DNA of 64,000 nt from Psammoneis japonica (GCA_008632985.1 QPGO01000004.1:434001-498000), one strand, 5' to 3'; positions 5,896-51,523 are shown, numbered from the stretch's first letter. Notes: generated by a model not told the origin, from the letters alone. Numbers and translations: made by a program.

Positions 5896-6399
5896 GATTT
5901 AAGATAAGGAATTAGCAAGAACAGTAGTTTTAATGTCTCTTTGTGAGGGTGGATATCACAGAATATTTTGAAAGATCAAGCTAAGACGGTTACACGGTCA
6001 CTGAACTTGGCGAATGAGGAGTGTCGAAGATCGATGATGCTCCTTCTTCTCAACGAGAACTTGTTTTCATTCGTGATGGCACCAGGCAGTGACGTGGACG
6101 TGATGACGTCATTATGTCTTCTTGGACATTCGGGGGTACCGCCCTAGCCCTAAAGAAGTGCAAATCGAATCGTGACGTTGGGTTGTCAGAATGCATGCCT
6201 CCCATCTCTTTTATCCCCTTTCACAGCCTCCCTCGCCTCCTTGGTGTACTCTGTTGCTGGCCAGCATTTGTCTCCGGCTGCTTTTTGCCTCGTGCTCCAA
6301 CGCAGGCTTCTTTGACTCCCGATCTCTGCTGGAGCGTGGACCAAATCCCACTCCGCGGCCTGTGTGCAGCAGAGTTGCCGACCCCTGCAGAGACCACCG

Positions 6400-7150
6400 C
6401 CATGCTCTCTGCTGTCGCTTCCCATCACACAAGACAACTCTCTCAGTTCATGCCTTCCTCCCAATGATTGGGTCACTTGCTGGTCCTTTTTGCTCCAACA
6501 AGAACTGGCCTCATCAGCACCCACCAGACCATGACCATGAACCTCCTGCTGATCTCTTTTCTCACTTGCCCCCCAAACACACCCTGCCATGTGTTGGTGT
6601 GTGCTTTGTCCCTGCACATGACACTGCCTCGCCAGCCACTCACACTTGTCTGGCCATCAGTGCAACCATCCTGAAACCACCTCCCAACTCAGCTCTTGGC
6701 TTGCCTGCCCTGCCCTGCCACCAACTGCACTGCACCGAGGCACACCATGCAAGCACCAAGAGAAAGTTTCATGGCAACCATGAAACTGGCCAAGAAGGCC
6801 CAACAATGATGTCTTCTCTCAATGATGCAGGCGTGCACCTTTTCCATTCACCACTGACCATTTTGGCTCTGCTCTTGGACACTTTGTGCACCACATCTCC
6901 TTTTCGATGATCGGCAGCACCGCCCTGTGCTGCTCATGCCACCTGCACCCCCTTTGGATTCTGAGACTTGTTTCCAGCACACCCATGCCTCCTGCTGTGC
7001 TGCCTTGTCCCATCTGAAAGGCTCCCCCTGTGATGTCTTCCCAACAGCCACTGTGGTGTGGACCAAAACCTCATTGTCTGGATTTGGCATCATGCCCCGT
7101 GCATCCAACCCCTGCCAGCGGTGCTTTCAGAGGCTCATCTCTTGGTCATC
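6400..7150 (-). mobile_element. Possible highly degenerate Gypsy RT/RNase H relic
   Basis: Fragments DARGMMPNPD, GEPFRWDKAAQQEAW and RAEPKWSVV resemble the Gypsy RT thumb/RNase H linker; frames are broken. Confidence 0.3.
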
Positions 7151-9585
7151 AGATCCCTTGCTGACTGGCTTTTTTGCCATTCATCTACACTCAACAACAA
7201 CTTGCTTGCTGCACCCTTGCAACACCAAAGCCATCCCATGCCTGTGTGATGTGCCATTGCATCATGCCTGGTGGTCCTCTGTCTGTCATTCACACTGCAC
7301 CACCAGGCAACGTGGTGCGCAACCTCCTCACATGTGTGTGGTGCACAGCTGAACAGTGCAGCAGCAAACCTCATAAAAAAAACATGCCTCTTTCGTGCTT
7401 TTCTTTTTTTGACACCCAAGCCACTGGGGCCCAAGCTGGGCAGCAGGCCAGATGATGGTGGGGTCAGCAAAACTGTGTCACTGACACTTGTTGACTCCTT
7501 TTGCTTTGAAGAGAGAGAGCAAAAAGACACTGCCAAAAAACATTTGGGGGGGGGAGGTGCCAGCACCCTGTGCACAAGGAGGCTCAGAGCTTTTTTTGGA
7601 GGTTGGGGCAGTTGTTTGGCTGGGTGCATGATGCTCTGAGCTCAAATCATGTTCATGATCCCTGCCAGCTGCCAGAAGCTCTCATCTCATCTCCACCTCC
7701 TTGTGCTTGACTTCTTTGTGGAGAGCACTGCAGCAGGTGTGTGTGCAATGTATGCTCACTAACAAGCCATCAGCACAGAGGGCCATGGGGCTGATGATGG
7801 CTGATGTCCAAGGCATTGGACCATGCCTGAATGCCGTGTCTTCATGCTGAGAGACATGGACCCACACTCCTCATGTGAGGACATTTGCAAAAGATGACTG
7901 CGCTGCTCTGGCACAGCTGTCTTTGCACAATGTCCATGTTGCAGCAGCCTTTTCTGCACATGGCAGTGCACAGACATCTGGTTGGAATGCAAGCACATGT
8001 GCAATCATGTCTGCAGATGCAACTCAATGGGAGAACCAACCAAAAATGTGGGTGTCACAAATGTGTGGTGCATGGACATCTGGGTGGAATGCAAACAAGT
8101 GCAATGTCTGAAAAGTTTTGTTGCTCTTGTTCAGAATTGATCTGTGAAGAGTTTTCATCAACCAAGCAAACCAGCAAGAAGTTGGAAACCAGAATCAAGA
8201 AAATTTGGCATTGCAGTGCATGAGATCTTGATGAGATGGATTTTTTGCACCTCTGCAACACAGTCATTGTGAGCATTGTTGTTTTGACAGTTGAGCCCAG
8301 TTGGCAAAGCAGGAAATGACAATGAATGTCACATGTGACTTGCCAGCTTTTCATCTCAACAACAGCGCACGTGTGTGACAAATTGCTGACATGGTTCATT
8401 TCTGAGAACAACTGTGCAAATCAATCTCGTTCACTCTTTTTTTGTTTGCTGTTTGATTTGTGCATTTTACAATTTGGGCTTCTAACAATGTTGACTTTCT
8501 GTGCTGTGCATTCTTGTTCTCTGCTGCCTGCTCCCTCTTGTCTTTGCTCTGTTGTTTTGTTTTGTTCTCCCGTTGTCTTTTGCCATCCACAAAGCATCTT
8601 GTTGTTGCTTCTTGGCTGTGCTGGCATTGTGTCATGCTCCAATCAGTGTCTGTGCTCCAACTGGCATTGTGCTCATGTCATCAGTCTTTCAACAAGAGCC
8701 AGTTGTTTCTGCAAGTGTCGCTCATCATTGCAAGAGAGGGCACAGCCATGCCTGCCAGAAAAAAGCAGAGAAGTCATGAGTTTTGCACATTTGGCTTGGG
8801 AACCTTTTGGGATCTTGCACTCACCAACAAGAACAGCTGTTGCAACACACCTTCCATTCGTGGAAGGTTTTGGGAGAAGGTTGGCCCCAGCACCTCAGCC
8901 ATCATGAGCCAAGAACAAAGCACTTTTGCTGCTCACCTTCAAACCCAAATGGATCACATGCTTCCCCTGAAGGCCTGCAACAACTTGTTTGCATGACCCA
9001 CCCTTGATGGTGCATTCTCCAAATGCCGCAATGTGCTCAGCTCTGAGTCTGTTGTCAAAGGCAAGCCATTCGCGCATTTTGGTGTGTTCTGTCATGTTTT
9101 CCATTCTGAGTGCACACTGCCTCACAACTTTTTGTTGTTGCCACCTCTTTGACAGGTCAGCGCACCACTGCAGATTTGTGTGAGGATCCTCCTGCCAACA
9201 TTGTGTGGCCTTTGTCACAAGAAGAACAAAATGCTGCCACACGCCATTGTGAAGGAGCTCTTCTTTGTGTGCAGCATGCCACTTCGGATGATTGGCTCCA
9301 TCTGCACGGGTCTTGTTCTTTGTTCCTGTTGCCATTGAGATCCACTTGAGTCACACTTTCTTCATGCCAATGGGCAGACAGGGTGAGAGTTGCTCACACA
9401 GCTGTCATGGACTTTGCTGTCAAGGATGTGAGGCCAGCTGTGACTCGCATCATGGAGAGTGCTGTGCAGGAGGCACTCACACAGCTGATCTGTGTGAAGT
9501 GTTGTCCCCTCATTTGCCTTTTCAAGGATCACAACAATGACTTGATGGAAAGCCTCCTCCCTTGAAGATTGCCTGCCTGTCCCTG

Positions 9586-9964
9586 TGCAACATGCGTTGT
9601 CATGTGTGTGTCACACATGCACATCTGTGCATCAAATAAAATTGCACTCCAATCGCACGTCAATCGTGGGTTCGTACGAAGCACAGATCGATCACACAGA
9701 AGTGATCGGATGTCGAGAATCGCAAATGCGATCGCACGATGATGTTGACATCTTGTGTGTCAATGTCAATCGCATCCGGACAATCTGTTGTCACGATCAT
9801 ATTCTCCGAAAGGCCTTTTGTCTGTAGGAGCAGTGCAAAAGGTTTAGGCTGTTGAGAACCCGTTCGGAGAAACCCAAAATGATTGCGCAGAAACAATTCT
9901 CACAATTTTCACTTTTCGAACTTCGTTCTACTTTCGTTTGCACTCGTTCTTCAAGCACAGTGCA
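9586..9964 (+). repeat. Gypsy 5' LTR
   Basis: Colinear with 14331-14709; starts TGCAACATGCG and ends GTGCA. Confidence 0.93.
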
Positions 9965-10000
9965 TTGTGCACACACACCACAGAAGGCAACAAGTTCAAG

Positions 10001-11154
10001 ATGAAACTTTCACCTCAAGCAACCAACGCCAAAACTTCGTCAAGGCAGGAGAAAATCGTTCCTCAACCGCTGGAATCGAATTCCGAGCCGAAGAGCCTCA
10101 AACCGAGCCAGCACCTCAAGATGGAGCAACGTTTTCATCCCGAGAAGAAGGATGGCCACACCTGCACCATCAATGTCAAGCATTACAAGAAGCAAGGTGT
10201 CCCCAAGTGCATCGAATTTCTCAAGAGCTACGATCAACTTCCAGTGGGCCAGAGTGTCAGGAAGCAATCCGACAAGTTCCGCCTCATGCGCATGTCACTC
10301 CAAGGAGATGCTCCACGTGCTTTCTAGAATGCGGCAGTGAACCTTGAAGACGAATCTGCGGAAGGAAGCTTTGAGAAATGCCTGCAGCACCTCACGAGGC
10401 ATGTGTTTCCCAAGAATGCACTTTCGGTGCAGAAACGCTGTTTGCGTCGCGATCTCAAGAAGCCGGAGTCCATGAAAGCACGCGAAATTGCTGCTTGGGT
10501 CCAGGAAGTCAACGAAGACCTCAAGTTCTGTCCTCCCTTTGGGAAGGAACAGAAGATCAAGGATGACGAGCTCAAGGACATCCTCTTCAATCTTGCACCT
10601 CGAAAGTGGCAGCGTCAGTCGACCGTCCAAGGTTTCGAAATTTTGAAACATGCCCATGACGAGTTGGTTGAGTTTTTGGAGCGCCTGGAGGTCGCAGAGG
10701 ACATGTTCGATGGCATTCATGCCAAGGCTGATGGCAGTGGCGGCACTGCATCAAAAGCCAAGAGTGGTCACCAACGTGGTTCCAAAAATGGTCACCAACA
10801 TGGTGCCGAAAAATCTCAGTCCGAGAAGTGGTGCATTTCATGCGAGAAATCCACTCATGACATGGACAAGTGCTGGTCGATCAAAAGACTTGCAAAAGAA
10901 CGCCGTGGAACTGTGAACCCAATCCAAAACGGCGCCGTTCAAATGGCAATCGCATGTGGTCTCGTTGCGATGACGACAATGCCGCTCGCAAAGAAGAGTT
11001 GAATGCCACGGCGATCCAAGCAGTTCAAAAAATGCTCAAAGCGAGTTCCTCATACAATGACAAGAAGCGCAAGAGCAAAGGCTGTGATTCTGACACCCTT
11101 GACGAGGAGAATTTTCAGTTTGAAAAAATGACATGCAGTGATTCTGAGGAATGA
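10001..11154 (+). pseudogene. gag: Gypsy gag (in-frame TAG at 10325, frameshift near 10900)
   Basis: ORFs 9938-10327 and 10337-11002 are in the same frame; degenerate zinc knuckle WCISCEKSTHDMDKC. Confidence 0.75.
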
Positions 11155-11217
11155 CTTGCACCGCAAGAGGAGTCTTGCGCTCTGCTGGACATTGGGAAGC
11201 CCAGAAAAAGGGCCAAA

Positions 11218-14200
11218 GTGATTCATGCCAGTCCAGTGGTCATCGCTTGCATGAACACCTCATTGGGCAAAGCGAAAAACAAGCCTCTGCACGTTCTCCT
11301 CGACAGCGGAACATCGTCAACCATGATTTTGCGCAAATTCACGTGGAAACTCAGAACCAAAGTGTCCGCCACCAAACTCTGGGAAACCAAAGCAGGGCTC
11401 TTTACGACTGACAGCAGATGCAAAATCCAATTCTCCTTGCCCGAATTTGACAAACACAAGACAATCGAAACAACGGCATGTGTTGACAACTCCCCTTCTT
11501 CTTCGAGTCGTTATGATGTGATCATGGGATGCGACTCAATGTCAAGTCTTGGGATGACATTGGACTTCTCGAATGAAGAGATTAAATGGGAAGATGCAGC
11601 TGCTCCCATGAAGAATGTTGACACACTCTTCGATGCCGATGCATTCAAGTTGATTGCCGATCATGTTGAGGAATCTCGTGCAGTGATCAGTCTTAATGAC
11701 AGGGTCAATCGGATCCTTGACTCAGACCATCACGCTGCAAACCTCAATGATGTGACTGCAGCAGCTGCCCATCTAACTCCTGAAGAGCAGAAGCAGCTGA
11801 ACTTCCTCTTAAAAAGATTTGAAAACCTTTTCGATGGTTCTCTGGGCAAATGGACCGGGAAACTGGTGGATTTGAAGTTGAAATCGGGCGTGAGTCCGTG
11901 TCATGCCAAACCATTTCCCGCACCACAAGCCTTGGAGGCGACCACTCGTAAAGAGGTTGAAAGACTGTGCAAGCCAAAGGTCTTGAGAAAAACAAATTGT
12001 TCTGAATGGGCAGCTCCATTGAGTCCGATTTCCACCCGACTTTCGAGAGCTGAATAAGAGGCCAATGCGCGCTCCATTTCCTCCACCCAACATTCAGGAC
12101 ATGCCACAGAAACTTGAAGGTTTCATGCATGCAACATCTCTAGATTTAAATGTGGGACATTGTCATGTCGAGCTGATGCCAAATGCACGTCGTTTGTGCA
12201 CAATCGTCATGCCTTGGGGCAAATGTGAGCACTGCAGACTCCCCATGGGAATCTGTGGAGCTCCAGACATTTTTCAAGAGCACATGAGCGAGCTCATGGC
12301 AGGTCTGGAGTTCATCAGAACTTGTGTTGACGACACATTGTGCCTTGCAAAAGGTGATTTTCAAGACCACCTCAAGAAGCTTGAGACGGTGTTTTTACGC
12401 CTGGAACAAGCCGGGTTGAAGGTCAATGCCGAGAAGTCCTTTTTCACTAAACCCGAAGCAGACTGTCCAGGCTTTCATGTCACCCGCAATGGCATCAGCC
12501 CGATTCCGAAAAAGGCAGAAGCAATTCACGCGATCACAACTCCCAAAACTCGCAAGGAATTGCGACGCTTTGCAGGTGTGATCAACCACTGTCGAGACAT
12601 GTGGCCTCGACGATCTCATGTTTTAGCTCCTTTAGCCAAACTCACTTCCACGCAAGTAAAGTGGCAATGGACCGAAACAGAACAAAAAGCCTTCGAAAAT
12701 GTGAAGCGCATCATCTCCAAAGATGTGCTGTTGTCACATCTGAACTTCAACGCACCCTTTGAGACATGTGCCGATGCCAGCAATTCTCAATTGGGGGCGG
12801 TCATCATGCAGAAAAACCGACCAATTGCCTTCTACAGCCGCAAGCTGAATGGAGCGCAGACGCGTCACACCACAATGGAAAAAGAACTGTTGTCCACAGT
12901 GGAGACGTTAAAAGAGTTCCGAAATGTGCTGTTTGGCCAACAGACAAATGTGCACACGGATCACAAGAATCTCACACATAAAAATTTCACAACGGACAGA
13001 GTCATGCGTTGGCGTCTAACAACAGAAGAATGCAGTCCCAAAACAACATGCCTTGAGGGCAAGGCAAATGTTGTCGCAGATGCGATCAGCCGACTTGCTG
13101 TGAAGAAAATAGAACCTGTGGAAACCCTCAGCACAGAAGAGTCAGCTGAAAAGGTCCCACCAAAATCCTGCGACAATGTCTTTCCGTTAAATTACAAAGT
13201 TCTTGATTGCGAACAAAAATGGGACAAAGACATTCTCTCCAAATTGTCAAACAATGCGTTTCATGCGAAGACTTTTCGTGGAGGCGAGCGAGACCGGTTG
13301 CTCATGTGTCATGAGGACAAAATTGTCGTCCCAAGGACGTTGCAAAAGGCAGTGATAGATTGGTGTCATGCGCACCTTCTTCACCCTGGCACAAATCGAA
13401 CAAAAGAAACAATCTCACAACACCTGTGGTGGTCCACCCTGCGTGAAGACATACGAAAATGTGTGTCGAGATGTGAGACGTGCCAAAAATTCAAGAAGAA
13501 ACACAAGAAATGTGGACATTTGCCTCCCAAGTGCGCAGAATCCGTGCCATGGGAACGACCATGTGTGGACCTCATTGGGCCATACAAAATGCGTCGTAAG
13601 GGAAAGAAAGAACCCCCAGTCCTGAAATGTTTGACAATGATTGATCCGGCAACCGGATGGTTTGAAGTTGTGGAAATCCCAAATGAGGAATCCATGACTG
13701 CAGCTGGACTGTTAGAACGAACATGGTCAAGCAGATGTCCTTGGCCATCGTCAATTGCATGTGACCGTGGAAGTGAGTTCATCGGACACCAATTTAAAGA
13801 AATGGTGCAAGATGATTGTGGCATTAAAGTCAAGCCTGTGACTGCACGAAATCCACAAACAAATGCAATTGTTGAACGCGCACATCAAGCACTGGGGAAC
13901 ATGCTCCACACATTTGATTTGCAACACACACCTCTAGATGCTGAGGATCCCTTCGCTGGAATGCTGTCAGCAGTGGCATTTGTGGCACGTTCTGCGCATC
14001 ATGCCACTGCGCAAGCTGCACCAGGACAACTGGTCTTCAACAGAGACATGACATTTAACGTCCAACATGTCGCAGACTGGAAATCAGTCCAGCAGTGAAA
14101 ACAAGAAATCACAAACAAAAACAACGCTTGAGAGAATGCTTGACGTGCTCCTCACACGTGCAGAGCAGGAGAAAAGACACTGCTCAAGAAAGACTTGCAA

Positions 14201-14300
14201 AAATTAGAACAGCCCTGTGTTGGACCGCATGTGATGACAACGGCACACACTGATGGCACAGTGCAGATCAAACGCGGTGACGAACAATGCCGTTTAACGA
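11218..14300 (+). pseudogene. pol: Gypsy pol (protease, RT, RNase H, integrase), disrupted
   Basis: Protease LLDSGTS; RT RLPMG and TCVDD; RNase H DASNSQLG, AFYSRKL, TDHKNL; integrase HLLHPG...CETC, DRGSEF, NAIVER. Frame break at ~12030-12065 and stops after 14096. Confidence 0.93.
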
Positions 14301-14330
14301 CTGACTCTAATGTGCAATTAGGGAGGCGAG

Positions 14331-14709
14331 TGCAACATGCGTTGTCATGCGCGCATTGCACATGTGTGTCTGCATGTCAAACAAAATCATGTTCCAATCA
14401 CACGTCAATCGTGGGTTCGCACGAAGTGCAGATCGATCACACAGAAGTGATCGGATGTCAAGAATCGCAAATGCGACAGTGCGATGATGTTGACATCTCA
14501 TGTGTCAACATCAATCGCATCCGGACAATCTGTTGTCACGATCACATTCTCCGAAAGGCCTTTTGTCTGCAGGAGCAGTGCAAAAGGTTTAGGCCATTGA
14601 GAACCCATTCGGAGAAACCCAAAATGATTGCGCAGAAATGATTCTCACAATTTTCACTTTTCGAACTTTGTTCTGCTTTCGTTTGCACTCGTTCTTTGAG
14701 CATGGTGCA
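14331..14709 (+). repeat. Gypsy 3' LTR
   Basis: Direct repeat of 9586-9964, preceded by the PPT and followed by TSD CCTG. Confidence 0.93.
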
Positions 14710-16149
14710 CCTGAACCTGCTAGCAGCAATGTGAATGACAACAATGGCAAGCACACTGGGATAAAAAAATCATTTCATCATGAGTGTCCCATTGTCCCAT
14801 TTCAAGCAGAAACATTGGCAGAGCAAGGACATTGTCCACTTTACAAAGCAACATGACATTGTCATCTCATCTGCTGCAAAGCATTGGATGGAATCTTCAA
14901 CAACACCAGTGACCCCAACTCCAGGCACAGGCTGGGGTGTCAAATGTTGAGTGTTGCTTTTGATGAACCTGCTGCCATGGCTGCTGCCATGTGAGCAGCA
15001 AGCGGTGCACTGGCCATGGACAACATTCCGGCTGGACCAACTCTTGAGTTTTTGTTTTGTGATGAAGCACCAGGCAACAAGAGCAACCTTGTCCCTGCAG
15101 ATCACATTGATTTCCCCCCACCATCTGTGTGACCCATGGACCTGGGTGATGAAACAGGCGATGATGATCATGACAACAAAGATGAAGTGTCAGATGACCA
15201 ACAATCTGCAGAACCTTGAGGTTGAGCACAACAGCAGCAGCATTCTCTGTTCTCCACCCGCCTTTGACTGACAGTCTGTCTTTTTTGCTGCAACATTGAA
15301 CAAGCTGTTTTGCACCTCACCACACAATGGCCAACTTCATTGAAATTCACATGTTTGTGAAAATCTCTTCAAAGTCATGCATTGGCTCTGTCATCCTCTC
15401 TGGCTTTCATGCAGATTGATCCACCCCTCATCCATCCCCACATGGCACAGGTCACATCTGCTGACATTTCTCTGTTGTTTTGAGTTTGGTTGGGCCACCT
15501 TTCCCATTTTCACAATGAGGAGACAAGGCTCCACACTGGCTGCTGTTGTGGGATGCCTGATCAATGGCGCGCGCCATTGGCTTCATGTGCCAAGTCAGAA
15601 AAAGAAATTCATTTTCCATCCACTCTGACATGGGCAGTGCTGCAGTCAAGAGCACATGTGCCTGGTTGAGCAAGTCACTCAAATGACTCAGGCAAGTCCC
15701 CATGTGGACTGCTCCATCATGACAAAATGATCCGGCACACAAACAAACCATGGTTTTTGCCTGCTGAAAAATTGCCATGGGTTGCAACACATGATTTGCA
15801 GTTGGAATGCATGCAACATTGGCGCTCTCTTTCAGATTGCACCAAAAGTCCAGCAAACCTCTCCATCTCAAAGAAGTGCTGCAGACTGCAGAAAGTGCCC
15901 ACATGTGTGCCATCAGCCCTGCCATGGCACCCACTGCCAACAACAGCCAGACTTCCACATGGCTTGTCATCCATGATGCAGCACAAGTCTTTGTCTCCAT
16001 CTGCCAAGTCTTTTGCCTGGCTTCAAAGGTTTTAAGTGGTTTCCTGCCACTTTTCTGCTTGTCCATCAACTCATCATGCAGCAACCAGTCCTCGCACAAT
16101 GTGCCCAGCATCATGGATTCACTCACATTTGAGATGCCAGCTTTGGTGG

Positions 16150-17200
16150 AATCTGTCATTTTTCCTTGTTCATGCTGCTGGCAAGCTTTCAGGTGAGCTT
16201 TGCAGATCCAAACCTTTCCATCTCTGTGTTCCTTGGTGTGTGGACAACTGGCACACTCAACCTTGGATTGCCCCTGCTGCCAAAATGAACTTGACATTTC
16301 TTGGAAGTCTTGTTGGCCTTCTTTCCTTTTGAAACCTCTGGTTTGCAGTCTCTGGCTTTGGTGTTCTTCTGTGTTAACTCCAGAAGCTTCTCTGTGGCAA
16401 CATTTGAGGAGGAGTTGTCCTTGCCAAGAGAGCTGGTGCCAGTTTGGTGCTGAAACAAAGGAGGTGCCTGCAATGAAGGGGTGGCAGAACCTGTTCATCA
16501 CCAACCATTTCTTCTCCTTTTTTTGACCTTCACCACAATGGGTTTGTCTGGCTCCCATTGTTTGTTGCTTTGAGTGAATGCCACCCATTGCCTTCAAAAG
16601 TGGCGCAGCTTCCTTGCAATGCTCTGCAGTTTTTGGATGTGTGCAGGTGGTGCCAGCTTGAGGAATGTGGTCACAAATGGCTTGTTTTTTGTTTTTTGTC
16701 AAATGGAACAGTCAATGACTGAACAGATTTTGGAAGCATCATCAACTCCAAAGCAATGCTGACACATGGGTCAGGGAAAGAAAGACCAGCTGTTGCCAAC
16801 AACTGAGTGCTGCACAGCAGCTGACAAAGAAGTGCTGCCAGTGGTGCACTGTTTTTTGCTTTGAAATGGCACCAAGGAAAACAATGAAGACCCCACATTG
16901 GAAAGGGTTGGCAGGTCATGTTCACAATCAGTGAATCTGCCACAGCCTCATTTTTTTTAGTCCAACTTGTCCATTGTTGTGCTTTCTCATGAGAGCAAGG
17001 CTTTGTCATCAGCAATGCTGCCACCCACAAAATTGTGAGCAACTTGCAGCTTTGTTTTTTCTGTGCAGTTGGATTGTTGGCAGCCAGCCAGGGGCTTTTT
17101 TGCAATTGAAGACATCTTGGCAAGGAGTGGACAGATTGTCCAAAAACAGCCATTGTTGCTTTTGAATCTTGACAACAGTTGTTGATTGGACAACAAGAAA
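16150..17200 (-). mobile_element. Possible degenerate piggyBac/IS4-like DNA transposase relic
   Basis: Weak fragments (AVADSLIVNM, PKTAEHCKEA..GGIHS, KKW..NRF, Cys-rich CASC...WICKAH..C tail) suggest a piggyBac-like transposase; not verifiable by eye. Confidence 0.25.
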
Positions 17201-23296: not shown

Positions 23297-23367
23297 AATC
23301 GGGTCTAGAATGGTTTTTGTTGCAAAGCTGTAACAACTATGTAAGAAGTGAAATGTACCACTCAGAT

Positions 23368-25933: not shown

Positions 25934-26011
25934 AAGAGATTAACAGCAATTACCATTATAGATTAGTGTGAGAAGCTACATAGGTTTATGCTCTCAGATA
26001 AAATGGGAGCT

Positions 26012-40945: not shown

Positions 40946-41374
40946 CCCTTCAACCACCATGGGAGCAAATCTCCATGGGTGGAGATCTGCTCTGCTTGCA
41001 GATGTGTGACGTGTCATGCACTTTTATGACAATGTGATGTACACAGCATAAAAATGTCATGTCCTGTGCAATCTGCGCAAAAGCACCGCATTTGCTCCAA
41101 GGGTGTGGCATTGTTGCTCTGTTTGTGACAGCAATTGATGACAACCGCCATTGTCAATGGTTGAGATTTAGTTCCTCTCTGTTCTAAAAGTCGACATCGA
41201 ACTTTCTAAATTACAAAAAGGTTGCCCCCAGATTTTTGGCAAATGCGCGTTCCAAAACAAAATCATGCGAACAAAATGTTGTGCACATCTGAGGTTGCTT
41301 CATTTGCTGTGTTTGTGATGCAAGCAAGCAAATCTCCACCCGTGGAGATTTGCTCAAGTCTGGTGGTTGAAGGG
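40946..41374. mobile_element. piggyBac-type MITE (429 bp)
   Basis: Perfect 14-bp TIR CCCTTCAACCACCA / TGGTGGTTGAAGGG, subterminal palindromes (GCAAATCTCCA..TGGAGAT), flanks TTAA (40942-40945) and TTGA (41375-41378). Confidence 0.8.
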
Positions 41375-41421
41375 TTGACAACCAATGAGAGGTCTGAACT
41401 CTTCCTGCACCCCTGATCCTG

Positions 41422-41698
41422 TGATGGAAATTGAAGGCAAATGGCAAGAATTCAAACAATGACTCCTTGCTGCTGTCTAAATGGCAGATGAGTCTCCGCT
41501 CAGAGACAGTCACAGGAGCCGAAGGACGTGCAAGTCAAGTGTGATCGGGCTACTGTCATTGTTCTTGTGAGCCTTGTGGCTCGAAAGCAAACCACATCGC
41601 GCGTGAACGCGCGGAACTAAAGCACACAAAACTGTGCACGGTAAACTAAACAGCGCGCGATGCTTCGCGCGCACCCAAATCCTGTTCAAATCCTGTCA
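41422..41698 (-). repeat. Copia 3' LTR (TpA-converted copy)
   Basis: Direct repeat of 48257-48532. Confidence 0.95.
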
Positions 41699-44600
41699 CT
41701 CCCCAGTTTGCTTGAGGAGCCACAGAAACAGATTTGACTTCGGATGGAATGAAGTTCCAGAACATGAGGGGGCGGAGAAGGTCCCAGATTTGGGAGCAAC
41801 CCCAATGCTTGCTGAGAATGTCAGCAGGGTTGCGGGAGCCTTCGATGAAGTGGAACTCAAGGTGACCAGAGGCAATTGCCTCACGCACACGGTGGAACGA
41901 CAGTGCAGTGTGTCGCTTGTGTAACTTGGAGTGCGGGATGGTGGCACTGTCTACAACCGACTTGTTGTCACCGAACATGTAACCAACGTTACGGATCGGG
42001 ACGCCAAGGCAGCGCAGGGTGATGCGCAGGTCGACAATCTGCTCAACACAAGTCCTTGCGGCAACAAATTCAGACCCGCAGGTCGCAGTCTCCACGGTGG
42101 CTTGTTTCTTAGAGAACCAATCAGCCGGGAATTTGTTGAGGAAGTGGAGCATTCCCATGACAGAGCGTCCGGTGAGCATGCAATGGTACAAGTTTGCATC
42201 GACGCAGTGGGTGGCAGTGACGAACTTGCCAAGGGGCGGTGGAGCGTCCTTCGGGATCATCTCTTCTGCTTCACCATACACGGAATGCATCCATTCATAG
42301 GCCGGAGCAGGGAGATCCGAACAGTCGGGCTCTTCCGTGCGAACGCGGAGAGCACCATGTCGCATCTTGGAGAGGCACCCACAGACGCGCTTGGCACGAT
42401 CCAAGTGGCCTTGACGGGGCGCAGCTCGGAAGCTAGAGAGTGACATGACGGCCGTGGCAATGTCAATTCGACCAAGGGACACTGCCCATTGGAGTGAACC
42501 AACAAGAGACTGGAACTTGTGGATGCCATCGGGTCCCAGCAGTTCGGAAGTGTCCAGTTCGGGGTGGTCACCCTTCTCTAGAGGTGACAGGGCGTTGGTG
42601 GCAGGTTTCTCCCCAAACAGTCGGGCACAGCTGTCGACCATGCGCTCGATGTACTTGCGCGGAGACAGGCACAAGGTTCCGTCGGGTTCCCGGGAAAAGT
42701 CGCAACCCAGATGGAACTCAATGGGTCCCGCACCCTTGAGCTTGAACTTGTGCTTTTCCGTGAGGGTGTCGACGAAAGATTGAGGGTCCTTCATGGCAAT
42801 GGCGAGGTCATCCACATAAACGGCAATGTGTTCACAGTGGTCGCCGTTCCTGCGCATCCAAATGTCGGGTTCGGCGCGGCAGGGGAAGAAGCCTTCAGCT
42901 CGCAGGCAGTCGGCGAAGCGCTCATGCCAGTGGAGACCGGAGCTGCGCAGTCCATGCAGTGCCTTGTGGATGACAAGGATGTGTCCTTCGAGTTTGCCGA
43001 ACTCGGGTCCAGCTACAATGTAAAGCTTCTCCTTGGTGGTGGCTTCAAGGCAGGCATTGCCAATGTCGGTGGCCCATGTCTCCAACTCGTTGAGTTCGGC
43101 CAGGAAAATCATCAGCCGAAGGCCACGGAGGGAGACTACTCCGGAGCAGACACTGTCGACAGGTGCGTCCGTGAGGTGCCCGTCGGCTACGAGTCGTGCC
43201 TTGTGGCGACCGTCGTGTTTCACGTCGTGCACCAGGTGCACTCGGATCTTCTTGTGTCCCGCAGGAGGAGTGGAAGACTTGAAGGGCCCGCAGTCATGGA
43301 AGACTTCGTATTCGTCGAGTTGGTCCATCTCAAGATTAGTTGTGTCTCCCCACTTGCGGTTGCCGTTGCGTTCGTCTAGTGACATGGCGTGTTTGTAGTT
43401 CCGGGGAACTTCGCATCCATGCTTGTGGCGAGGTGCAGTGCGGAAGGAGCGAAGCTTGGCTTGGTTGGCCATGCGAAATGGCTTCTTTTGGCGCCTCGCG
43501 ATGGTGCGGAACCGCTTCCAGCCATCCGTGTCGAGGAGTCCGTTCTCTCGTGCATAGATGGCACAGGTGACGGGGTCGTCCTTGGCGATGATGGCAAGAG
43601 GCTCGGACGTGATCTCCCCACTTTCCCATTCAAGCATGATGTTGTAGCTGGAGCCTTTCCAGGTTGGGTCGTGAGGCTTCAGAGGTCCTTCGTGTGACAC
43701 GATGCGTCGAAATTTCCAAACAGTGGTGTCTTCGTCTTCTTGCTCAATGTGATTCATGATGTCATTGTGGGCAAGGACTTCCTCGTATTTGTCATTGTTG
43801 ACAGAGCAGACGAACTTAGTGAGCTCGGGATTGCCGTTCACTTTCCATTCGTGGTCTTCGACGGCCTTGACGATGCGAGCTCTGTGGCGTTGTCCGTCCT
43901 CTTGTGGCTGCATGAGGAAGGCACGTCCAATGATGTCTTGCGGATCGAAAACTGGCATCTTGGGTGTCCTGATCTCCCCATCAGGAGAGTCAACGGGGTT
44001 GTCGTCATGGCGAGATTTGATGATGGGTTCAGGTGGCTCCCCATCAGGAGGATCAAGACGCAGGTTTCGGACGGCAGGATCGGGGGTAGCGGAGCGGACA
44101 TTGGACCGGCAGAGGATCTTCTGATTCTCGTCAGATAGAATCTTGAAGGTCATCTGGTGGCCGACGTGCTCAGCAATGCCAACGAAGCGTCCATGCAACT
44201 CACGGGATTCGGACGGCCAATCGGAGTCATCGAGGTGGAAGCACACGGGTTCCCACCAGTGAAAGCGAAGCAATGGGCTGATGTCCGGGGTGGAGCCAGT
44301 GAGAGTCTCAAGGGGCGTGCGCCAGTGGAGACGTGGGGACGCTGCATGGTTGAGTGTGAAGCACACGTGCATGAGCGCCAGCAGCCATGCATGGGCGGGC
44401 GAACCAAAACGATCCATGACAGTGTTCGCCATGCGCTTCACGGTCTGGTGTCGATGCTCGGCAAAGTTTTGGTGTTGCTGGTGAGGCTCACTTTGCCAGC
44501 TAGAGATGAAGAGGGCGCGTAGGATCCCGAGCACTTTGTTGCTGATCTCAACTTGAGCACGGTCGCCAATGAGTTTGGATGGGGCACCACGTTCACGGAT

Positions 44601-45750
44601 CTGATCCTCGAGTGTGTTGACAAACTCTTTGTCCGTCTTAGTGCCGTAGACGTCAGTGACGGTAGACTCGGTGCCAACAAACAGTTGGGCGCTGGTGCAA
44701 CCAGAGTCGACGGCCGGGGTGTCGGCACAAACGGTGTCAGTGGCGATGGGCTCGTTGCGGCGGTGCACATTAAGGGCGGGGTTGGGTGATTTGCAGGCCT
44801 TGCGAAGGTGTGTACCGGCGGGCATGCGGGCGCACTGCGTGGTGCAGTCAAAAGTACGACGGACCGCATCGGCAGGTGGGAAGCCAAAGTGAGGCCGAAG
44901 AGACTCGAAGGGGGGGTCCTTGGGCTGTACAGTGCGCTCCGGAGGTGGAACATCATCGCCCTGGGGGCCAATCGCATGCAGATGACACTCGTAGAACACA
45001 TCGTCGTTCGGAATGAGGTGATCATCGAGGGCGGACGCGTGATCGGCAGACAAGGAAGCGGACATGATGGTCTCGTTGACAACGACACGATGACGGCAGT
45101 TGCCGCACTCGTCAAACAGGTTGGCAGTGGGATCGTCCTGCAGGTCAGAGATCGCGTCGCACCACTGGTCGTCGTCAGTGACAGAGTGATCGAGGACGGA
45201 AGGGTCCCATGTGTCATCACCGGTGAGGATGACATGGGGCAGGGTGTCCCATTCGGCGTCAGTGTAAGGTCGCATGGCAACACAAGGCAGGCCAGCCTTG
45301 ATGTCAATGGGGATGACATAGCCATCAGGAGTGGCAATGCGTTGCAAGCCGTTGGGCACCTTGACAGAGCGATCGTTGACATCCTGTTTGCACCATTCGA
45401 GCTGGCCGCAGGAATGGATGGTCTTGCCCTTGCCCGTGCATGCGCACTGATGGAGCATGGCGATGACGGGACCACGCTGGGTCTCAACAACGGCACCAGC
45501 GGTGACAATGGGGATGTCCACCAATTGATGATCGTCAATGCCCTGAACGTCGACTTGGCGAGAGGTGCGTGCAATGACGCGAACGTCGTCGCCAGCAATG
45601 CCGCCGTTGGCCCCACGATCGACTAGAGCGCCAGTGCGTGTGGAGCGATGAGCAGAAGCAGAGCAAATGACATTGTGGTTGTCAACGCGGCGGTGAGTGT
45701 GACCGTTGAGTTCTGTGTCATCTGCAGAAGCTGGCGGGGCAGAGGAAGCG
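41646..45750 (-). pseudogene. pol: Copia pol (protease, integrase, RT, RNase H): open frame but with many Tyr->Cys/His changes
   Basis: Protease LVDRGANGG (~45600-45625); integrase ATDTV, DRAQVE, HQNFAE; RT HKARLVA and YVDD; RNase H SEFVAA, GDNKSV, NPADILSK. Confidence 0.93.
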
Positions 45751-47314
45751 GCGGATGGCCCGGTCGACTGGCATTGGGGGCTTGGTTAGGAGACAACAGA
45801 CGTTGCAGATCACCGGGTGGCAGTGGCTTGCGCTTGGTGAGGTGCGCCAGGATGGGATTGTCCGAAGTGGCATCCACATGTGGAGCGGAGTCACCAGAGT
45901 CAGCAGGAGTCGTGTTGGACAAGTTGACATCACCGTCACTCCCAAGGCGTTGGTCGTGAAGGTTGGCCGTAACAGACTCATGGCAGTTGCTGGCTCGCGG
46001 GTTGCGGGGAGGTGGACGAGAATGCTCAAGGATGATCGCCTTGGAGGAATCGGGCAACGAATCCCAGAGCCGTTGGTGGTCGGGAGGGAGACGTCTCCAT
46101 TGGACACCGGTGAGGCTGGGACCGCGGGTGCAGGCAGCATTGGCTTGAAGGACGTCAACGTCGCTGTCAATGTCGCAGAACACATCGTCGGACGGTTCCT
46201 CGGAGTGGACGTTGTGTGCGCACATGGCGCGTCGGGGAGCTCGAGGTGTCGTCTTGGGTTGAAACGTGCTGTCGTGCTGAGCTGCGGCGGAGAGGAGCAA
46301 GCCACAGCATTGATCGCATGTGAGGCTCTTGCCACTCTGCGCACGATGCTGATCAGCTTGGTTCTTGACAGCACGGAGTTCCTCGACAGGGTGCACGGCA
46401 TTCTCGAGCATGACGCGCTTCTGTCCTTCAGAGAAGTGGTCGCTGGCCGGGATGAGTGCCTCGCACTTGCGCAACTGATCTTGCCAATGAAGGATGAACC
46501 CGTGGGTCGGACCTTTCCAAGTGCCATCACCAAGACGCGCGGTGGTGAGGTGCGTGAGCAGGGTGGAGGACTCGACAGATGCGCGGGTGGAGGCAAGCGC
46601 GCACTCAGACAAGGAGCGGCAGACGGTCTGTGCGTCAGAAGACCCCACATTTTCGCAAATGAGAGCCTTGCCCTTGTCGGTGAGAAGGATGCGTTCGAAG
46701 ACGGCGAACATGTGCTTTTGCTGTTCAGCAAAGAGCAGTTTGTCTTCGGGGCTGGTCGGTTTGTACGACGAGTCTAGAATGCACTCGACGTCTTGGGCAC
46801 GGGCTTGTGCCACAAGTGAGGTGTGCCAAGTGTGCCACTGCTTGTCGGATTTGAGAGCCGTGAAAGCGGTGGGATCACGCTTGATGCCTCGCTTGAAGTC
46901 CCGCACCGGGTCGCGTGCCTTGGTCGGGTTGGTGACATGTGGAGGTGCAAGGGGTGAGCTGCCGATGGACACAGAAGACATGCAGTCGGGGCTGAGGTGG
47001 CAGGCAAGGAACTCGTCATGCGCAAACAAAGAGGAGTCATTGGCAACGTCAAGACCTTTGTGTGCTTTGACAATGTGCAGACTGACCAGTGCTGCTAACA
47101 TGTTCTTGTGACCACGGGGCAAAGGGATTGCATTGGTGCCGTTTTTGCACTCAAGCGAGTCGATTTGGGACGGCATGAACGTGAACAGTTCCTGACACGA
47201 GTCTGTGCCGTCTTGGGCCAAAGCCAAACGAAGAGGACTCCCAGCACCTTGGGCAAGCACGGTTCCAACCACGTGCTCGAAACCATCGGTTTGTTGCTGA
47301 CGAGTGAGAACCAT
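45750..47314 (-). pseudogene. gag: Copia gag; frameshift relative to pol near 45750
   Basis: ORF 45623-47344 with DFKRGIKRDP, AQARAQDV and LENAVHP. It leaves the protease frame upstream of LVDRGANG. Confidence 0.85.
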
Positions 47315-48256
47315 GGCAGACAAAGGTGGTGTCAGGACAATCAATTCTGGTTGGGAAGCGAAGGTAGACTCGAAACTTGGGTGAGAACAGACTTGACTTG
47401 AAATGGACTTGACTTGAAATCTTGAACTATCTTAAAATCAGAAGTCGCCGGGCTTTGTCACCCCGTTCGTTGTCAAGTGCTAAACTTCCCATCCGGTCCG
47501 CAGAGTTGTGCCGGCACGTCCGAACCCGCAGCCAGCGGCGCTTTGGGTTGCTTGCGAGCGGAGCAGCGGGTTGTAAACCCCTGCAGGTAAGCTGACTAGA
47601 GGTGGACAAGACCCCCGAACCGTTCTCATTTTTGTGTCGGTTGGATTTCCCGATCAGGCTGGCCAGTTGACGCAGGCGTCAGGCGCTGTGGACGAACGAA
47701 CAAACGCGGGAAAGCACCCTCGCCCCAACGCAGGCTGCAATCACGGCTGCCTGCTCTCACAGTCGTCCTCGTGGACCTAGCAGAACTGTAGAGCACCAGT
47801 GGTCCGGGGTAGATCAGGTGCAATGGACTCGGTGTGCTTGTAGAGTGGTGGCAAAACCGCAGTCCGAAGAGTGGATAAAGGTTCTTGGCCGTGAAGACAT
47901 GTATATATATATATATGTCTTCAGCGACGAAGATCCTTGAATATGTAGGGTTCTTGACCGTTAACCGAGGAATAGGTATATAAAGGGATGTTGATCAAGG
48001 ATAGACTTGGATATGACCGTTGAATATAAGTCTTCAGCGATCAAAGGTAGTATAATCAATCCAGATATCCAGCGGTAAGGAGACTTGACGGTGACGTTAA
48101 CTTCCTGCCGATGCCCTGGTATTGAATGCGCGTAGACTTGCCGATGTATGTAGAATATATACGGAGGTCCACGTAGAATTGAAATAGCGTCGTTGGTAAA
48201 TCAACGACGACGATGGCGGTTGCTCAATGGGTTGACAATGAGCAAGACTGTTAATC

Positions 48257-48532
48257 TGATAGAAATTGAAGGCAAATGGCAAGAATTCAAACAATAACTC
48301 CTTACTGCTGTCTAAATAGCAGATGAGTCTCCGCTCAGAGACCGTTACAGGAGCCGAAGGACGTGTAAGTCGGTATAATCGGGCTACTGTTATTATTCTT
48401 GTGAGCCTTGTGGCTCGAAAGCAAACTACATCGCGCGTGAACGCGCGGAACTAAAGCACACAAAACTGTGCACGGTAAACTAAACAGCGCGCGATGCTTC
48501 GCGCGCACCTAAATCCTGTTCAAATCCTGTCA
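48257..48532 (-). repeat. Copia 5' LTR (largely unconverted copy)
   Basis: Direct repeat of 41422-41698 that retains TpA. Confidence 0.95.
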
Positions 48533-48539
48533 TCCTGAT

Positions 48540-51280
48540 TGGTGGCTCTGTCCACTCCCTGCCAGAGGTTGTGGGCAGTTTGACTTCAAAGAAGGCTTGC
48601 AGTCTCTTTCTCTGCTCCAGAGCAGGAGCACTTTGACTGCATTTGTTGGTTGGGGAAATTGCCTGGTGCACGTGCATGAGGGCTTCATGTGTGCAACATC
48701 ACCTGGTGGCACAGGAGGAGGGACAAATGCAGAGAGCATGGGTGGAACTGAGTCACATGGGCAGGGAAAGGGATGGGTCAGAGGGTGCTGGGGGCAGCAA
48801 GTTGGGACTGCATTTTGATGGAGCAGCAGATGAGTTTGTCAGCAAGTGACTTCTTGGCAATCACAAGGCTGAGGCTTTGAAGGCCCCAATGTGATGGAGC
48901 AGAGGTGTGGTGGGTCAAGCCAAAATGTGCAGCAGATGTGTTTTTCCAAGTGGCGGTGGTGGCAGCAGGGAGAATGGCAGATGGTGACAGCTGGGCACAG
49001 GTGCATGTGGCATGGGCGGCTGGATGTTTAAAGGAGGATTCAGTGGTCCAAGGACGGGTGGGTGGAGCATGGACCAGGTCTTCTGGATCAGCTCTGAAAA
49101 GGAGACGGCAAGCAAAGTGACCAGGAGCTGCAGGGGTCAGCTGCACCATTGCAAGAAGGGCAAGAGATGGATTTGAGGTGGTCAGGTGAGATGGGAAGCT
49201 GCAGCTTGCATTGTGGCATGAGGTGGAATTGATCCAGGGCCAGGCATGATTGTTGGGGTGAGGAGTGGGCAAGGGAGTGAGAGGGAGGCTTGCAAGTGGA
49301 GAGAGAAGGGGCAGGAATGCAAGGGTGACGTGTGCAGGGCCTCGTTGTTTGAGCATTTGCAGCTGATGTTGAAAGTGGGCATGGCACAAGGTGTGGGAGA
49401 GGTTGCACAGTTTGGGAATGTTTTTACAAGGGTGGTGAGGGAGGGCAGAGCAGGGTCAAGTGTTGAGATGGTGGTGGTGCCACACTGCAGAAAGACTTGA
49501 CAAAGGTGCAGGGCAAGGAACAATGTGAAGTGGCCCATGTGCAGAGGGAGCAAGCACAAAAGGGAGGTGGTCCAGGTGCAGCACATTGCTGGGAACAGGC
49601 CAGTTGAGAGAGGAAGAAGGGGATGGTGGAAGTGGTGATGGAGCAGCAACCTGCACCACCAGCAGATTCAGGGAGATGAGTGAGGAGCAATGCACAGGGT
49701 TGCAATTGTGCTGTGAGGGTGCTGCAGGAAGGCATTGCAGCAGTGCTGGATGTCTTGTTGGAAGGGCAAAGTCCAGGAAGCAAGGGGCAGTGGGGGTTGT
49801 CTGGGTCAAAGTTGAAGCACACGTCTGAGATGAGGAGGTGTGGGAGGGAGGAAGTGGCACAAGTGTGGCAGAGGGAGCTTTTGGTTTGGGTGTCTCAAAG
49901 GCAGGAGCAGAGTTGGTCAAGGTTGGTCCAGAAAGCAGAGGCTTTTTGGTCAAGGCAGGTGCAGGCAAAGTCAGGGCTTCCAATGGCTGGCCAGAGAAGC
50001 AGAGGCCAGCAGCAATTTCAGGGCAGACAGTGGGGGTTGTTGGCGGGGTTGAGGAAGGAGATTGCTTGGTGGAGGGTGACAGCACTTGCTGGGGGCAAGT
50101 TGGGCAAAGGGCCAGTGCCAGAGATGGAGGTGAGCATGTGTGTCTTGGAGTGGTTGAGGTGAATGCCATGTGGTGGGCCAAGCTCTTCAAGGTGTTGCAG
50201 GAACCACGATGATGCTGAAGATGAGGGCAGCAAAGGAGGGAGGAGCCAGTGGCTGGGCAACCCTGGGAGAGTTCGCTTCTGGTTGAGGGAAGGATTGCCA
50301 GCAACCACCAGGGTCACAGTGCCAGCACATGTTGGGGGTGTTGTGGCAGTGGTCAAAGATGAGAATGAGGTGATGGAAGGCTGGGGTTCTGTTGAGAAGT
50401 TGTTGACAAGCATCTTGGGAGCACTCATTGATGAAGTTGGCATGAAGAAGTTGGCAAGATTGAGAGTGAGGAAAGCGTGAGTTGGTGTGGCAGCATCAAG
50501 GCAGTGTTCAATGTTGGTGCATGTGGCATGTGCCAGGCAGTCAAGGCCTCCTTTGATGCCAGCACCATGCCAACACCAAACTGGCCATCAGGAAGCAGAC
50601 ATTTGGTGAGGGCAGGTGTGTTGATGGTCACAGTGAGGGCACCTGCGACACGGCAGACTCTGCAGCACCGCAGTCAATGGGGCGAAGTTTGACAAGGTCA
50701 GTTGGATCTTTGTGTGGGGCAACCAAGAAGTTGGCAGCAACAAGGGGTTGGATGTCTTGTGGGACAGAGCCAGTTTGAAGGTGGAGCACAAAGTCCTGGA
50801 AGGCAGAGAGGTGTGTGTTTTAGTTGGGGTGGCGGTTTTGAACAGGGCACGTGCTTTGAGGAGGTCAGTGGAGTCAGTGCACGGGCCAGCAGCAGTGCCA
50901 GGTTTGCACTTGCTGAGAGCAGCTAAGAGCTTGTCATCAGAGACACAGGGCAGGGATGGCGGGGGTGGCCGGAGAGCACTGTGTGGGAGGGGCAGGGGCT
51001 TGGGGTGGTGGTCGTGGGGCACCGGGCGGGTGCAAGAAGGCATGAATGAGAGGGAGGTGAGTGTCATTGATGGTGGCAATGGGGAGGTTGGAGGTGACTT
51101 GATGGTGAGCAGCACCAAATTTGTCAGCATCGGCAGATGGCTGGGCTGTGTGGCAACAGGCGGCGGAGGGGGAGAGACAGGGTGCATGGGTGGCAGCATC
51201 ACAGTGGGAGGGAAGGGTGTGGGCAGCATCGTGGAGTTCGCAGATGCGGTCTTGCTGGAAAAGCAGACGGTCATTTCTTG
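48540..51280 (-). mobile_element. Degenerate non-LTR retrotransposon RT (CRE-like)
   Basis: Across frames: KPGTAAGPCTD, HKDPTDLVKLRP, GQFGVG, SQGCP, FLQHLEELGPPHGIHLNHSKT and GQP, in RT domain order; heavily frameshifted. Confidence 0.65.
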
Positions 51281-51523
51281 GGGTTGACAGTGCCAGAGCG
51301 GCTGGGTGGAGCGAGGATGAGGGCTTCATATAAAAGCAGCAAACGAAGACTGTGAGGAATCATTTCAATCGAATTACTGTAGTCCGAGTGCCACAAATAA
51401 TCCAGATTTGTCGCGCTGACACACGAGGCACGACTCAAGGCCGCGCCACTCTGATGTGCACGTCTGCGACGCCTCGAAAGCAAAAGCGCCAGAATCATCC
51501 AGAAGCTCTCGCAAAGTCTGAAA

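Follow-up and report, generated by a model that had tools for sequence, protein, structure and literature searches.

Probable TpA-directed hypermutation of nested mobile-element islands in the diatom Psammoneis japonica

Described systems and the diatom locus

The subject of this study is the near-complete loss of the dinucleotide TpA from mobile elements in a 64-kb window of the nuclear genome of the diatom Psammoneis japonica (GCA_008632985.1, QPGO01000004.1:434001-498000; "the window" below means these 64,000 nucleotides), and its closest described counterpart comes from Bigelowiella natans. According to the available text of a recent preprint, 230 of 231 de novo mutations in integrated DNA of nucleocytoplasmic large DNA viruses (NCLDV) and virophages of that species were A-to-G or T-to-C changes, all of those at TpA (Mettrop et al., bioRxiv 2026, 10.64898/2026.01.13.699255). 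The same text gives a rate of approximately 6e-7 per site per generation in two viral regions, in some lines only, and describes the process as episodic, with a de novo rate raised approximately 1000-fold in mutation-accumulation lines (10.64898/2026.01.13.699255). It further reports that TpA-poor coding sequences are enriched in reverse transcriptase and DDE domains and that 1-kb clusters poor in TpA are rich in CpA and TpG; its authors propose an ADAT2-like adenine deaminase and cite DNA editing by amphioxus ADAT2 (10.64898/2026.01.13.699255). The initial annotation of the window, made from the sequence by itself, knew of no description of such a process, a statement that this preprint overturns. 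In the literature on diatoms, our search found no description of TpA hypermutation, and as far as searches show, what is new here is the presence of the process in a diatom and its saturation of long terminal repeat (LTR) retrotransposons.

In this study, we concluded that two nested mobile-element islands of the window have very probably undergone A:T-to-G:C hypermutation in situ, after insertion and nearly only at TpA. This is probably the same process as the TpA hypermutation of the B. natans mutation-accumulation lines. In the available text of the preprint, the changes there are likewise A:T to G:C, at TpA only, with TpG or CpA as the product depending on the strand, and in foreign or silent DNA only, mutation elsewhere in that genome being normal; A:T-to-G:C transitions, TpA specificity and confinement to foreign DNA, three of the four defining features, are all found here, in one window. 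The two cases differ in host, a chlorarachniophyte there and a diatom (a stramenopile) here, and in target, viral inserts there and LTR retrotransposons plus a miniature inverted-repeat transposable element (MITE) here. They also differ in extent, as the NCLDV region has an observed/expected ratio (O/E) of 0.45 in the available text, in contrast to 0.02-0.05 here, which is near saturation. In addition, the older parts of the diatom islands have lost CpG on top of TpA, and the window shows a 3'-pyrimidine rule and a spared 5' LTR, neither of which is mentioned in the available parts of the preprint.

Fungal repeat-induced point mutation (RIP) resembles the present case in that dinucleotide-specific transitions disable repeats in sharply bounded islands. 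However, RIP changes C:G to T:A, mostly CpA to TpA, and so raises TpA and AT content, the reverse of what is seen here; it creates stop codons, whereas here TAA and TAG are removed and no new stops arise; and it strikes both copies of a duplication, whereas here one of two identical LTRs was spared (with the caveat of gene conversion or assembly). RIP is also premeiotic, whereas the B. natans process runs in asexual growth according to the available text (10.64898/2026.01.13.699255). Decay of CpG through 5-methylcytosine (5mC) leaves an excess of TpG and CpA in silenced repeats, a feature found in the old blocks of the window, but it cannot remove TpA, and the Copia and Gypsy elements described below have lost TpA with CpG O/E of 0.90 and 0.75. 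The direction opposite to RIP and the loss of TpA from Copia with CpG kept bear out the view of the initial annotation that neither process accounts for the TpA loss. The enzymes ADAR and APOBEC3 make clustered deaminase transitions against repeats and viruses, and ADAR prefers a 5' U according to the available Discussion of the preprint. They act on RNA or single-stranded complementary DNA (cDNA), on one strand and before integration, whereas here both strands and the flanks of a DNA transposon were changed after integration; APOBEC enzymes, moreover, act on C rather than A. TadA and ADAT2, laboratory adenine base editors included, convert A to inosine after U or T, but their natural substrates are tRNA loops, and to our knowledge no link of these enzymes to chromatin or double-stranded DNA exists.

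Loss of TpA and its direction

The TpA O/E of the whole window was 0.37, and TG and CA both stood at 1.38 in the dinucleotide counts. The loss is concentrated in two blocks with sharp borders, within approximately 200 bp: the last host TA before the first block lies at 6247 and TA is back at 20275, and the corresponding positions for the second block are 35893 and 51329. The parts of the two blocks and the DNA between them are as follows, with TA counts set against those expected at host density.

6248-9584, unstranded: old block 1, repeat-like; in 6260-9584, 6 TA against 132 expected and 37 CG; TpA and CpG O/E 0.03 and 0.18, TG 1.94, CA 1.83
9585-14709, + strand: Gypsy LTR retrotransposon; LTRs 9585-9964 and 14330-14709, pol open reading frame (ORF) 12023-14098; 46 TA against 204 expected, body TpA O/E 0.14
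14710-20274, unstranded: old block 2; 9 TA against 222 expected (14710-20270), 40 CG; TpA and CpG O/E 0.02 and 0.13
20483-35519, unstranded: intervening host genes, the internal control; TpA O/E 0.57, CpG 0.99
35894-40941, unstranded: old block 3; over 35900-41421, 19 TA against 220 expected, TpA and CpG O/E 0.05 and 0.10
40942-41378, unstranded: piggyBac-like MITE of 429 bp (40946-41374) with its target-site duplications (TSDs); CCC...GGG inverted ends
41422-47750, - strand: Copia, mutated part; 3' LTR 41422-41698, pol ORF 41646-45785, gag-side ORF 45623-47431; 56 TA against 252 expected, body TpA O/E 0.19
47751-48532, - strand: Copia leader and 5' LTR (5' LTR 48257-48532), a spared island in the second block
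48533-51328, unstranded: old block 4, G-rich strand; 4 TA against 111 expected (48533-51320), 33 CG; TpA and CpG O/E 0.03 and 0.18
51329-51800, unstranded: right edge zone; partial TpA loss, with TpA positions at which a read contig departs from the window

Pooled, the four old blocks hold 38 TA where 685 would be expected at host density, and TG and CA are enriched across them (O/E 1.5-2.5). The three host segments have TpA O/E of 0.61, 0.57 and 0.56, so that depletion is not equally strong in the unique DNA of the window; the claims of the initial annotation that TpA has almost vanished from two blocks of transposons and repeats, while host genes keep it at normal levels, therefore stand. 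Among the TA-free gaps of at least 228 bp, 36 of the 38 in the window fall within the two blocks, the longest being a run of 1900 bp at 18375-20275; the remaining two lie at 51398-51712, in the edge zone, and at 29990-30218, in host DNA. Other A- and T-containing steps were hardly touched. Runs of at least six A or T are equally frequent in host DNA and blocks (1.10 and 1.19 per kb), in agreement with the earlier remark that poly-A is intact; ApA is not depleted (AA O/E 1.06-1.50 in 1-kb windows of the blocks), and ApT is lowered only mildly (0.75-0.87 where TpA is 0.02-0.05). In the four old blocks CpG O/E stands at 0.10-0.18, in contrast to 0.75 in Gypsy and 0.90 in Copia. CpG decay is a separate second layer, confined to the older blocks, where 5mC deamination probably accounts for it. 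The initial annotation described the TpA loss of the blocks correctly and overlooked both this CpG loss and the spared island at 47751-48532.

The direction of change is from TA to TG or CA, because LTR pairs, conserved tyrosine codons and a TSD all give it, as had been proposed for either strand. The two LTRs of a retrotransposon are identical on landing, yet here they differ at TpA, which places the mutation after integration. Copia is a single insertion, as shown by its perfect 5-bp TSD TCCTG at 41417-41421 and 48533-48537. Its 3' LTR has lost 12 of 17 TpA and its 5' LTR 0 of 17; 12 of the 14 mismatches of the pair set TA in the 5' LTR against TG (7) or CA (5) in the 3' LTR, none is the reverse, and only two other changes occur in 276 bp (Fisher p = 1e-10). 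None of 18 CpG was changed, no A:T-to-G:C change was found at A/T sites outside TpA in this pair, and no TpA of either the Copia or the Gypsy pair had undergone a transversion. Gypsy (reverse transcriptase domain RVT_1, RNase H and integrase; probable TSD CCTG at 9582-9585 and 14710-14713) is nested within older DNA of the first block. One TA is common to its LTRs, five are found in the 5' LTR only and none in the 3' LTR only; at eight discordant sites one LTR has TG and the other CA. As 19 CpG are common to the pair and 6 are changed, CpG decay would yield approximately 0.2 such discordant sites, and the eight sites therefore derive from TA. We infer that approximately 73% and 95% of some 22 ancestral TpA have gone from the two Gypsy LTRs. 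With TpA loss of 71-95% in LTRs where CpG loss was 0-12%, the TpA process is far faster than CpG decay.

Coding sequence gives the same direction. Conserved Copia columns were defined from 60 homologues, the best among 120 listed. Where 80% or more of these have tyrosine, it is kept in 11 of 34 columns and replaced by cysteine in 14, histidine in 6 and phenylalanine in 3, whereas other conserved residue types are kept in 73-100% of columns. In Gypsy, compared with 21 homologue segments, none of five conserved tyrosines is kept (three cysteine, two histidine). Among 70 changed conserved columns of Copia, the codon-polarised spectrum comprises 27-29 TpA transitions, 6 CpG transitions, 3 other A:T-to-G:C changes, 15 transversions and 17 multi-step changes (53 single-step changes in all), an enrichment of TpA transitions. 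The MITE adds a third line of evidence, since its left TSD reads TTAA (40942-40945) and its right TSD TTGA (41375-41378), a TpA-to-TpG change in one copy. The change is therefore post-insertional, in DNA and on both strands. Both orientations occur in the Copia LTRs (7 TG, 5 CA) and in the Copia tyrosine columns (14 cysteine, 6 histidine); neither the 17:8 ratio of cysteine to histidine over Gypsy and Copia nor the 7:5 ratio of the LTR sites is significant. No strand asymmetry is claimed, the 21:6 imbalance in the codon-polarised spectrum being a detection bias that arises from the use of amino-acid changes alone.

The TA sites that survive differ in context from those of host DNA. With Y for pyrimidine and R for purine, YTAR makes up 19% and RTAY 30% of TA in host DNA, in contrast to 42% and 14% in Gypsy and Copia (chi-square vs host, p = 8e-8) and 67% and 3% in the old blocks (p = 1e-9). 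Survivors are enriched for TTAA, CTAA/TTAG and CTAG and depleted of RTAY, above all ATAT. This survival of YTAR and depletion of RTAY indicate that the process favours A before a pyrimidine (5'-TAY), which on the opposite strand amounts to T after a purine.

The same direction explains a property of the coding frames. A change from TA to TG or CA destroys TAA and TAG and creates zero new stops, and these two codons together, counted on the + strand, drop from 18.0 per kb of host DNA to 1.3 per kb across the old blocks; for this reason the dead Copia keeps an open frame of 1379 aa. Forty-eight of the 82 stop-to-stop ORFs of at least 150 aa in the window sit in the two blocks, with overlapping frames on both strands. 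TA-free islands, in which two of three stops are impossible, thus keep long false ORFs that mislead gene callers, and the TA-free state also hides transposons from homology searches.

The base calls were compared with contigs from a sequencing run (X1) of the same sample as the window, in which single-copy word depth was approximately 60x. Six X1 contigs matched TA-free sequence of old blocks with no other letters at 35000-36454, 37564-41118 and 48506-49894, and a further contig matched at 50121-50916 with one gap. These matches exclude a stable modified base that is called now as TG and now as CA, since k-mer contigs would break at it. The base-calling artefact that the initial annotation had considered is therefore not what the reads show. 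Other runs gave two contigs (X2) and 62 low-depth contigs, Copia only (X3).

The spared Copia end, the older blocks and host genes

The Copia leader and 5' LTR form a 780-bp island (47751-48532) with 57 TA against 31 expected; its TpA O/E is 1.08 in the leader part, of approximately 480 bp, and 0.89 in the 5' LTR, and a (TA)7 tract is intact in the leader at 47902-47914. An X1 contig of single-copy depth (57.7) spans 48506-48954, across the Copia end at 48532/48533, with no other letters; as the window TA at 48510 lies within the matched region, the spared state is real at the outer end of the 5' LTR. Possible causes of the sparing are protection by promoter chromatin, gene conversion, and polishing or assembly of a high-copy repeat. 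In Gypsy, the TA kept in one LTR only lean in the same direction (5:0, p = 0.06). A homology sensor would strike both of two identical LTRs, and the Copia losses of 12/17 and 0/17 therefore fit guidance by chromatin or promoter state better than guidance by homology. The proposal of a repeat-targeted system can thus be kept as regards a dedicated process on mobile or silenced DNA, while repeat sensing in the manner of RIP is doubtful.

Copia was recognised by its RVT_2 domain and has homologues of approximately 1850-1930 aa; its reading frame is broken near 45.62-45.79 kb, which leaves the polyprotein in two frames. The family is very high in copy number, with a summed word depth in X1 of 67,000-127,000 against approximately 60 for single-copy sequence, equivalent to some 1000-2000 copies; 12,985 X1 contigs matched the 18-kb stretch at an identity of at least 90%. 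Variant places between these contigs and the window in Copia comprise A-to-G 46, T-to-C 38, C-to-T 36, G-to-A 35 and 16 transversions, and among the 35 listed inside Copia approximately 19 are alternations of TA, TG and CA, approximately 10 are CpG-related and 4 are other. Other copies of the family are therefore also mutated at TpA. Low TpA is not intrinsic to the family, as TpA O/E ranges over 0.35-1.02 and GC over 0.39-0.53 in 75 metagenomic loci of related Copia elements, in contrast to 0.19 and 0.58 for the body in the window. Over these 75 loci (455 kb), one 1-kb window only, in the flank of one locus (L030), had a TpA O/E below 0.2; the search patterns contained tyrosine and so selected against mutated copies, and the count says little on distribution. 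This flank (L030:2501-3750) belongs to a marine-metagenome contig that carries a related Copia. Its TA O/E is 0.20 and its CpG O/E 0.22 in the 1-kb window, it includes a TA-free run of 565 bp, and it may show the process at work in another diatom.

In the MITE, the inverted repeat 40944-41000 / 41376-41319 is 86% identical by self-blastn, and the interior retains seven TA, which marks it as a younger insert. At the right edge, a single-copy X1 contig (50891-53000) differs from the window at five places. Three of them (51398, 51713 and 51722) have TA in the window and CA or TG in the contig, and the other two (51162 and 52752) are CpG transitions. The chance of at least three of five differences falling on TA nucleotides is p = 0.002, on small numbers. 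These edge differences may be allelic variation, and they hint at raised de novo TpA change.

The origin of the old blocks is less clear from their coding content. Across all four, the 81 ORFs of at least 90 aa gave only three weak Pfam matches, with E of 0.006-0.0095, below the cut-off; none of 14 ORFs in old block 1 reached it, and zero Pfam families were found in 17 ORFs of old block 4. A 419-aa ORF at 15455-16711, in old block 2, had no homologue and no atlas match. The tRNA and Rfam scans of the window gave no matches. Old block 3 is repetitive in part, as the summed word depth of X1 contigs at 36202-38004 is 660-1009 against approximately 60, and parts of it are thus repeated approximately 10-16-fold in the sample reads. 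Self-blastn found a direct repeat in it (36285-36462 / 37373-37559, 78% identical, approximately 1.1 kb apart), which may be the LTR pair of a small and very ancient element or else reflect a local tandem structure; many rearranged joints were seen in the reads at 36371-37609. In old block 4 (48533-51320) the strands are asymmetric, with a GC skew of +0.28 to +0.34 and a CA O/E of 2.5 against 1.48 for TG, though TG exceeds CA in count; this asymmetry may go back to the element's initial composition. As to transposon classes, the initial annotation was right on Gypsy, Copia and the piggyBac-like MITE, whereas neither the Pfam scan nor tblastn verified its non-LTR element in the window.

The intervening host genes include, by Pfam domains, a GRIP-domain ORF, a DnaJ-thioredoxin ORF and a cytidylyltransferase besides a 674-aa ORF, and tyrosine makes up 2.0-4.6% of the four intervening host ORFs measured. 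Host genes of the window also comprise a V-ATPase subunit E gene, one with an NSUN5-like N-terminal domain, a ClpB-like AAA ATPase gene and a DEAD-box helicase gene, alongside those for the GRIP-domain protein, the DnaJ-thioredoxin protein and the cytidylyltransferase. Among the best 120 matches of the ClpB-like ORF, all named relatives are diatoms, among them Thalassiosira, Cyclotella, Skeletonema, Seminavis, Cylindrotheca and Epithemia besides truncated MMETSP names, with a top identity of 81%, which identifies the window as nuclear DNA of a diatom. A CpG cluster at 20265-20470 (approximately 30 CpG in 200 bp) sits exactly where the TA-free block gives way to the 674-aa ORF, which begins at 20483; it is probably the promoter of that gene and marks where the mutated domain stops.

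Candidate mechanism, rival explanations and meaning

Considering these results together, the explanation that we favour, and consider probable as a whole, is TpA hypermutation of silenced mobile DNA by an enzyme. In the proposed mechanism, the enzyme would be recruited to silenced chromatin and would convert adenine at TpA steps to hypoxanthine, which would be copied as G. TAY sites are preferred, and the changes halt within approximately 200 bp of host genes. Elements would be killed by the loss of tyrosine codons, TATA-like sites and TA/TTAA sites. In the oldest DNA, an overlay of CpG decay to TpG and CpA has left all self-complementary YpR steps as TG or CA. Adenine deamination is our tentative first choice for the chemistry, because the changes are pure transitions, the 5' T is invariant and the preprint offers a precedent; TadA and ADAT enzymes likewise act on A after U33 in tRNA (U33-A34). 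A chromatin guide is plausible in diatoms, since many Copia elements of Phaeodactylum tricornutum carry H3K9me2/3 and H3K27me3 according to the available text of the source (PMC4504042).

Several points weigh against this explanation. The support from X1 comes from the sample of the window and is not independent of it. The transposon identity of the old blocks is unproven: none of their 81 ORFs reaches the Pfam cut-off, and when 41 Copia and Gypsy proteins were used in tblastn, the two known elements alone were matched and nothing in the old blocks. The Pfam domains and host gene ORFs include no deaminase or other candidate enzyme encoded in the window, in line with the earlier statement that no responsible gene is identifiable there. 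We know of no natural enzyme that deaminates adenine in double-stranded DNA, and the universal ADAT2 would not by itself account for a lineage-limited signature. As TpA is palindromic, a T-to-C lesion on the other strand fits the observations equally well. The Gypsy leader was not spared. Gene conversion, or the assembly or polishing of so abundant a family, could be the source of the spared Copia 5' LTR. Finally, the words "genome-wide" and "defence" extend to the genome and to function what is seen in this one window.

The palindrome leads to the main rival, in which thymine is the target. A TET/JBP-type oxidase would make 5-hydroxymethyluracil (5hmU) or 5-formyluracil (5fU) at TpA in silenced DNA, and mispairing with G or mis-repair would change T to C. 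It explains TA-to-CA/TG equally well, with the context read as a preference for RTA; in dinoflagellates 5hmU is concentrated at TpA and TpC, and 5fU mispairs with G. However, 5hmU pairs normally with A, so that saturating pure transitions need the rarer 5fU route, and neither 5hmU/5fU in the diatom literature nor an oxidase gene in the window was found; we regard thymine oxidation as unlikely. Error-prone patch repair of the DNA polymerase eta type, miscopying T at WA motifs (W, A or T) in methylated or heterochromatic DNA, is more doubtful still. Hotspots of this polymerase are WA and its commonest change is A to G, and the older blocks show traces of 5mC decay, a possible trigger for patches of repair. 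But the expected co-targeting of ApA and transversions at A are not seen: AA is not depleted in the blocks, A/T runs are untouched, zero transversions occur at TpA in either LTR pair, and TpA was lost where CpG barely changed (0/18 in Copia and 6/25 in Gypsy).

Editing of RNA or cDNA before integration, by an ADAR-like or APOBEC-like enzyme and inherited by the inserted copies, would account for the many Copia copies that carry such changes, and ADAR, according to the available Discussion of the preprint, has a similar preference for U/T as the 5' neighbour. It is nevertheless very improbable: the LTRs of one insertion differ at 12 TpA in Copia and approximately 13 in Gypsy, the host-side TSD of a DNA transposon is mutated, both strands are affected and old non-coding blocks are saturated. 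The 3' neighbour preferred here is also a pyrimidine, whereas ADAR prefers a 3' G. We consider it just as remote that a modified base at TpA was misread or that repeat polishing altered the sequence. The library type of X1 is not on record, and the extreme depth of Copia makes polishing errors possible inside that element; against this, contigs of single-copy depth match the TA-free blocks exactly, apart from the one gap, the mixed TG/CA and broken contigs that an inosine-like base would give were not observed, and conserved tyrosine codons read in frame as cysteine or histidine while the remainder of the protein is intact. Illumina data of the B. natans mutation-accumulation lines show the same de novo changes, according to the available text (10.64898/2026.01.13.699255). 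The least probable reading is that low TpA is intrinsic or selected, through foreign origin or avoidance of a host factor. Surviving TA of Copia pol lie in tyrosine or stop codon phase in 17 of 40 cases, against 24% pooled in seven host ORFs (range 15-41%), an enrichment that may reflect some purifying selection in the history of the family. Yet non-coding LTRs and a TSD changed after insertion, 20 conserved Copia tyrosines became cysteine or histidine, which is not adaptive, the 75 Copia relatives have normal TpA, and Copia's own 5' LTR and leader have a TpA O/E of approximately 1.

To return to TpA hypermutation of silenced mobile DNA, its occurrence here brings a process known from one preprint to a second lineage, and in diatoms to an ecologically dominant group with transformable model species. 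We suggest tentatively that diatoms and chlorarachniophytes, and perhaps much of the stramenopile, alveolate and Rhizaria (SAR) assemblage, may share a chromatin-guided defence in which a DNA-editing enzyme erases TpA, 5'-TAY first, in silenced mobile or viral DNA during ordinary growth and spares promoter-proximal chromatin such as that of a live 5' LTR. Any candidate enzyme is constrained by the TAY rule, by action on both strands of integrated DNA, by a speed far above that of CpG decay, by sharp, chromatin-like borders and by the sparing of one of two identical LTRs. Should the chemistry prove to be adenine deamination, laboratory adenine base editors would have a natural counterpart in this enzyme. 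If the shared defence is real, it would mirror fungal RIP while preserving reading frames, and its enzyme would be the first natural A:T-to-G:C editor of chromosomal DNA; the presence of the TpA process in a diatom and in B. natans suggests that defence of this kind against mobile DNA is old and widespread.

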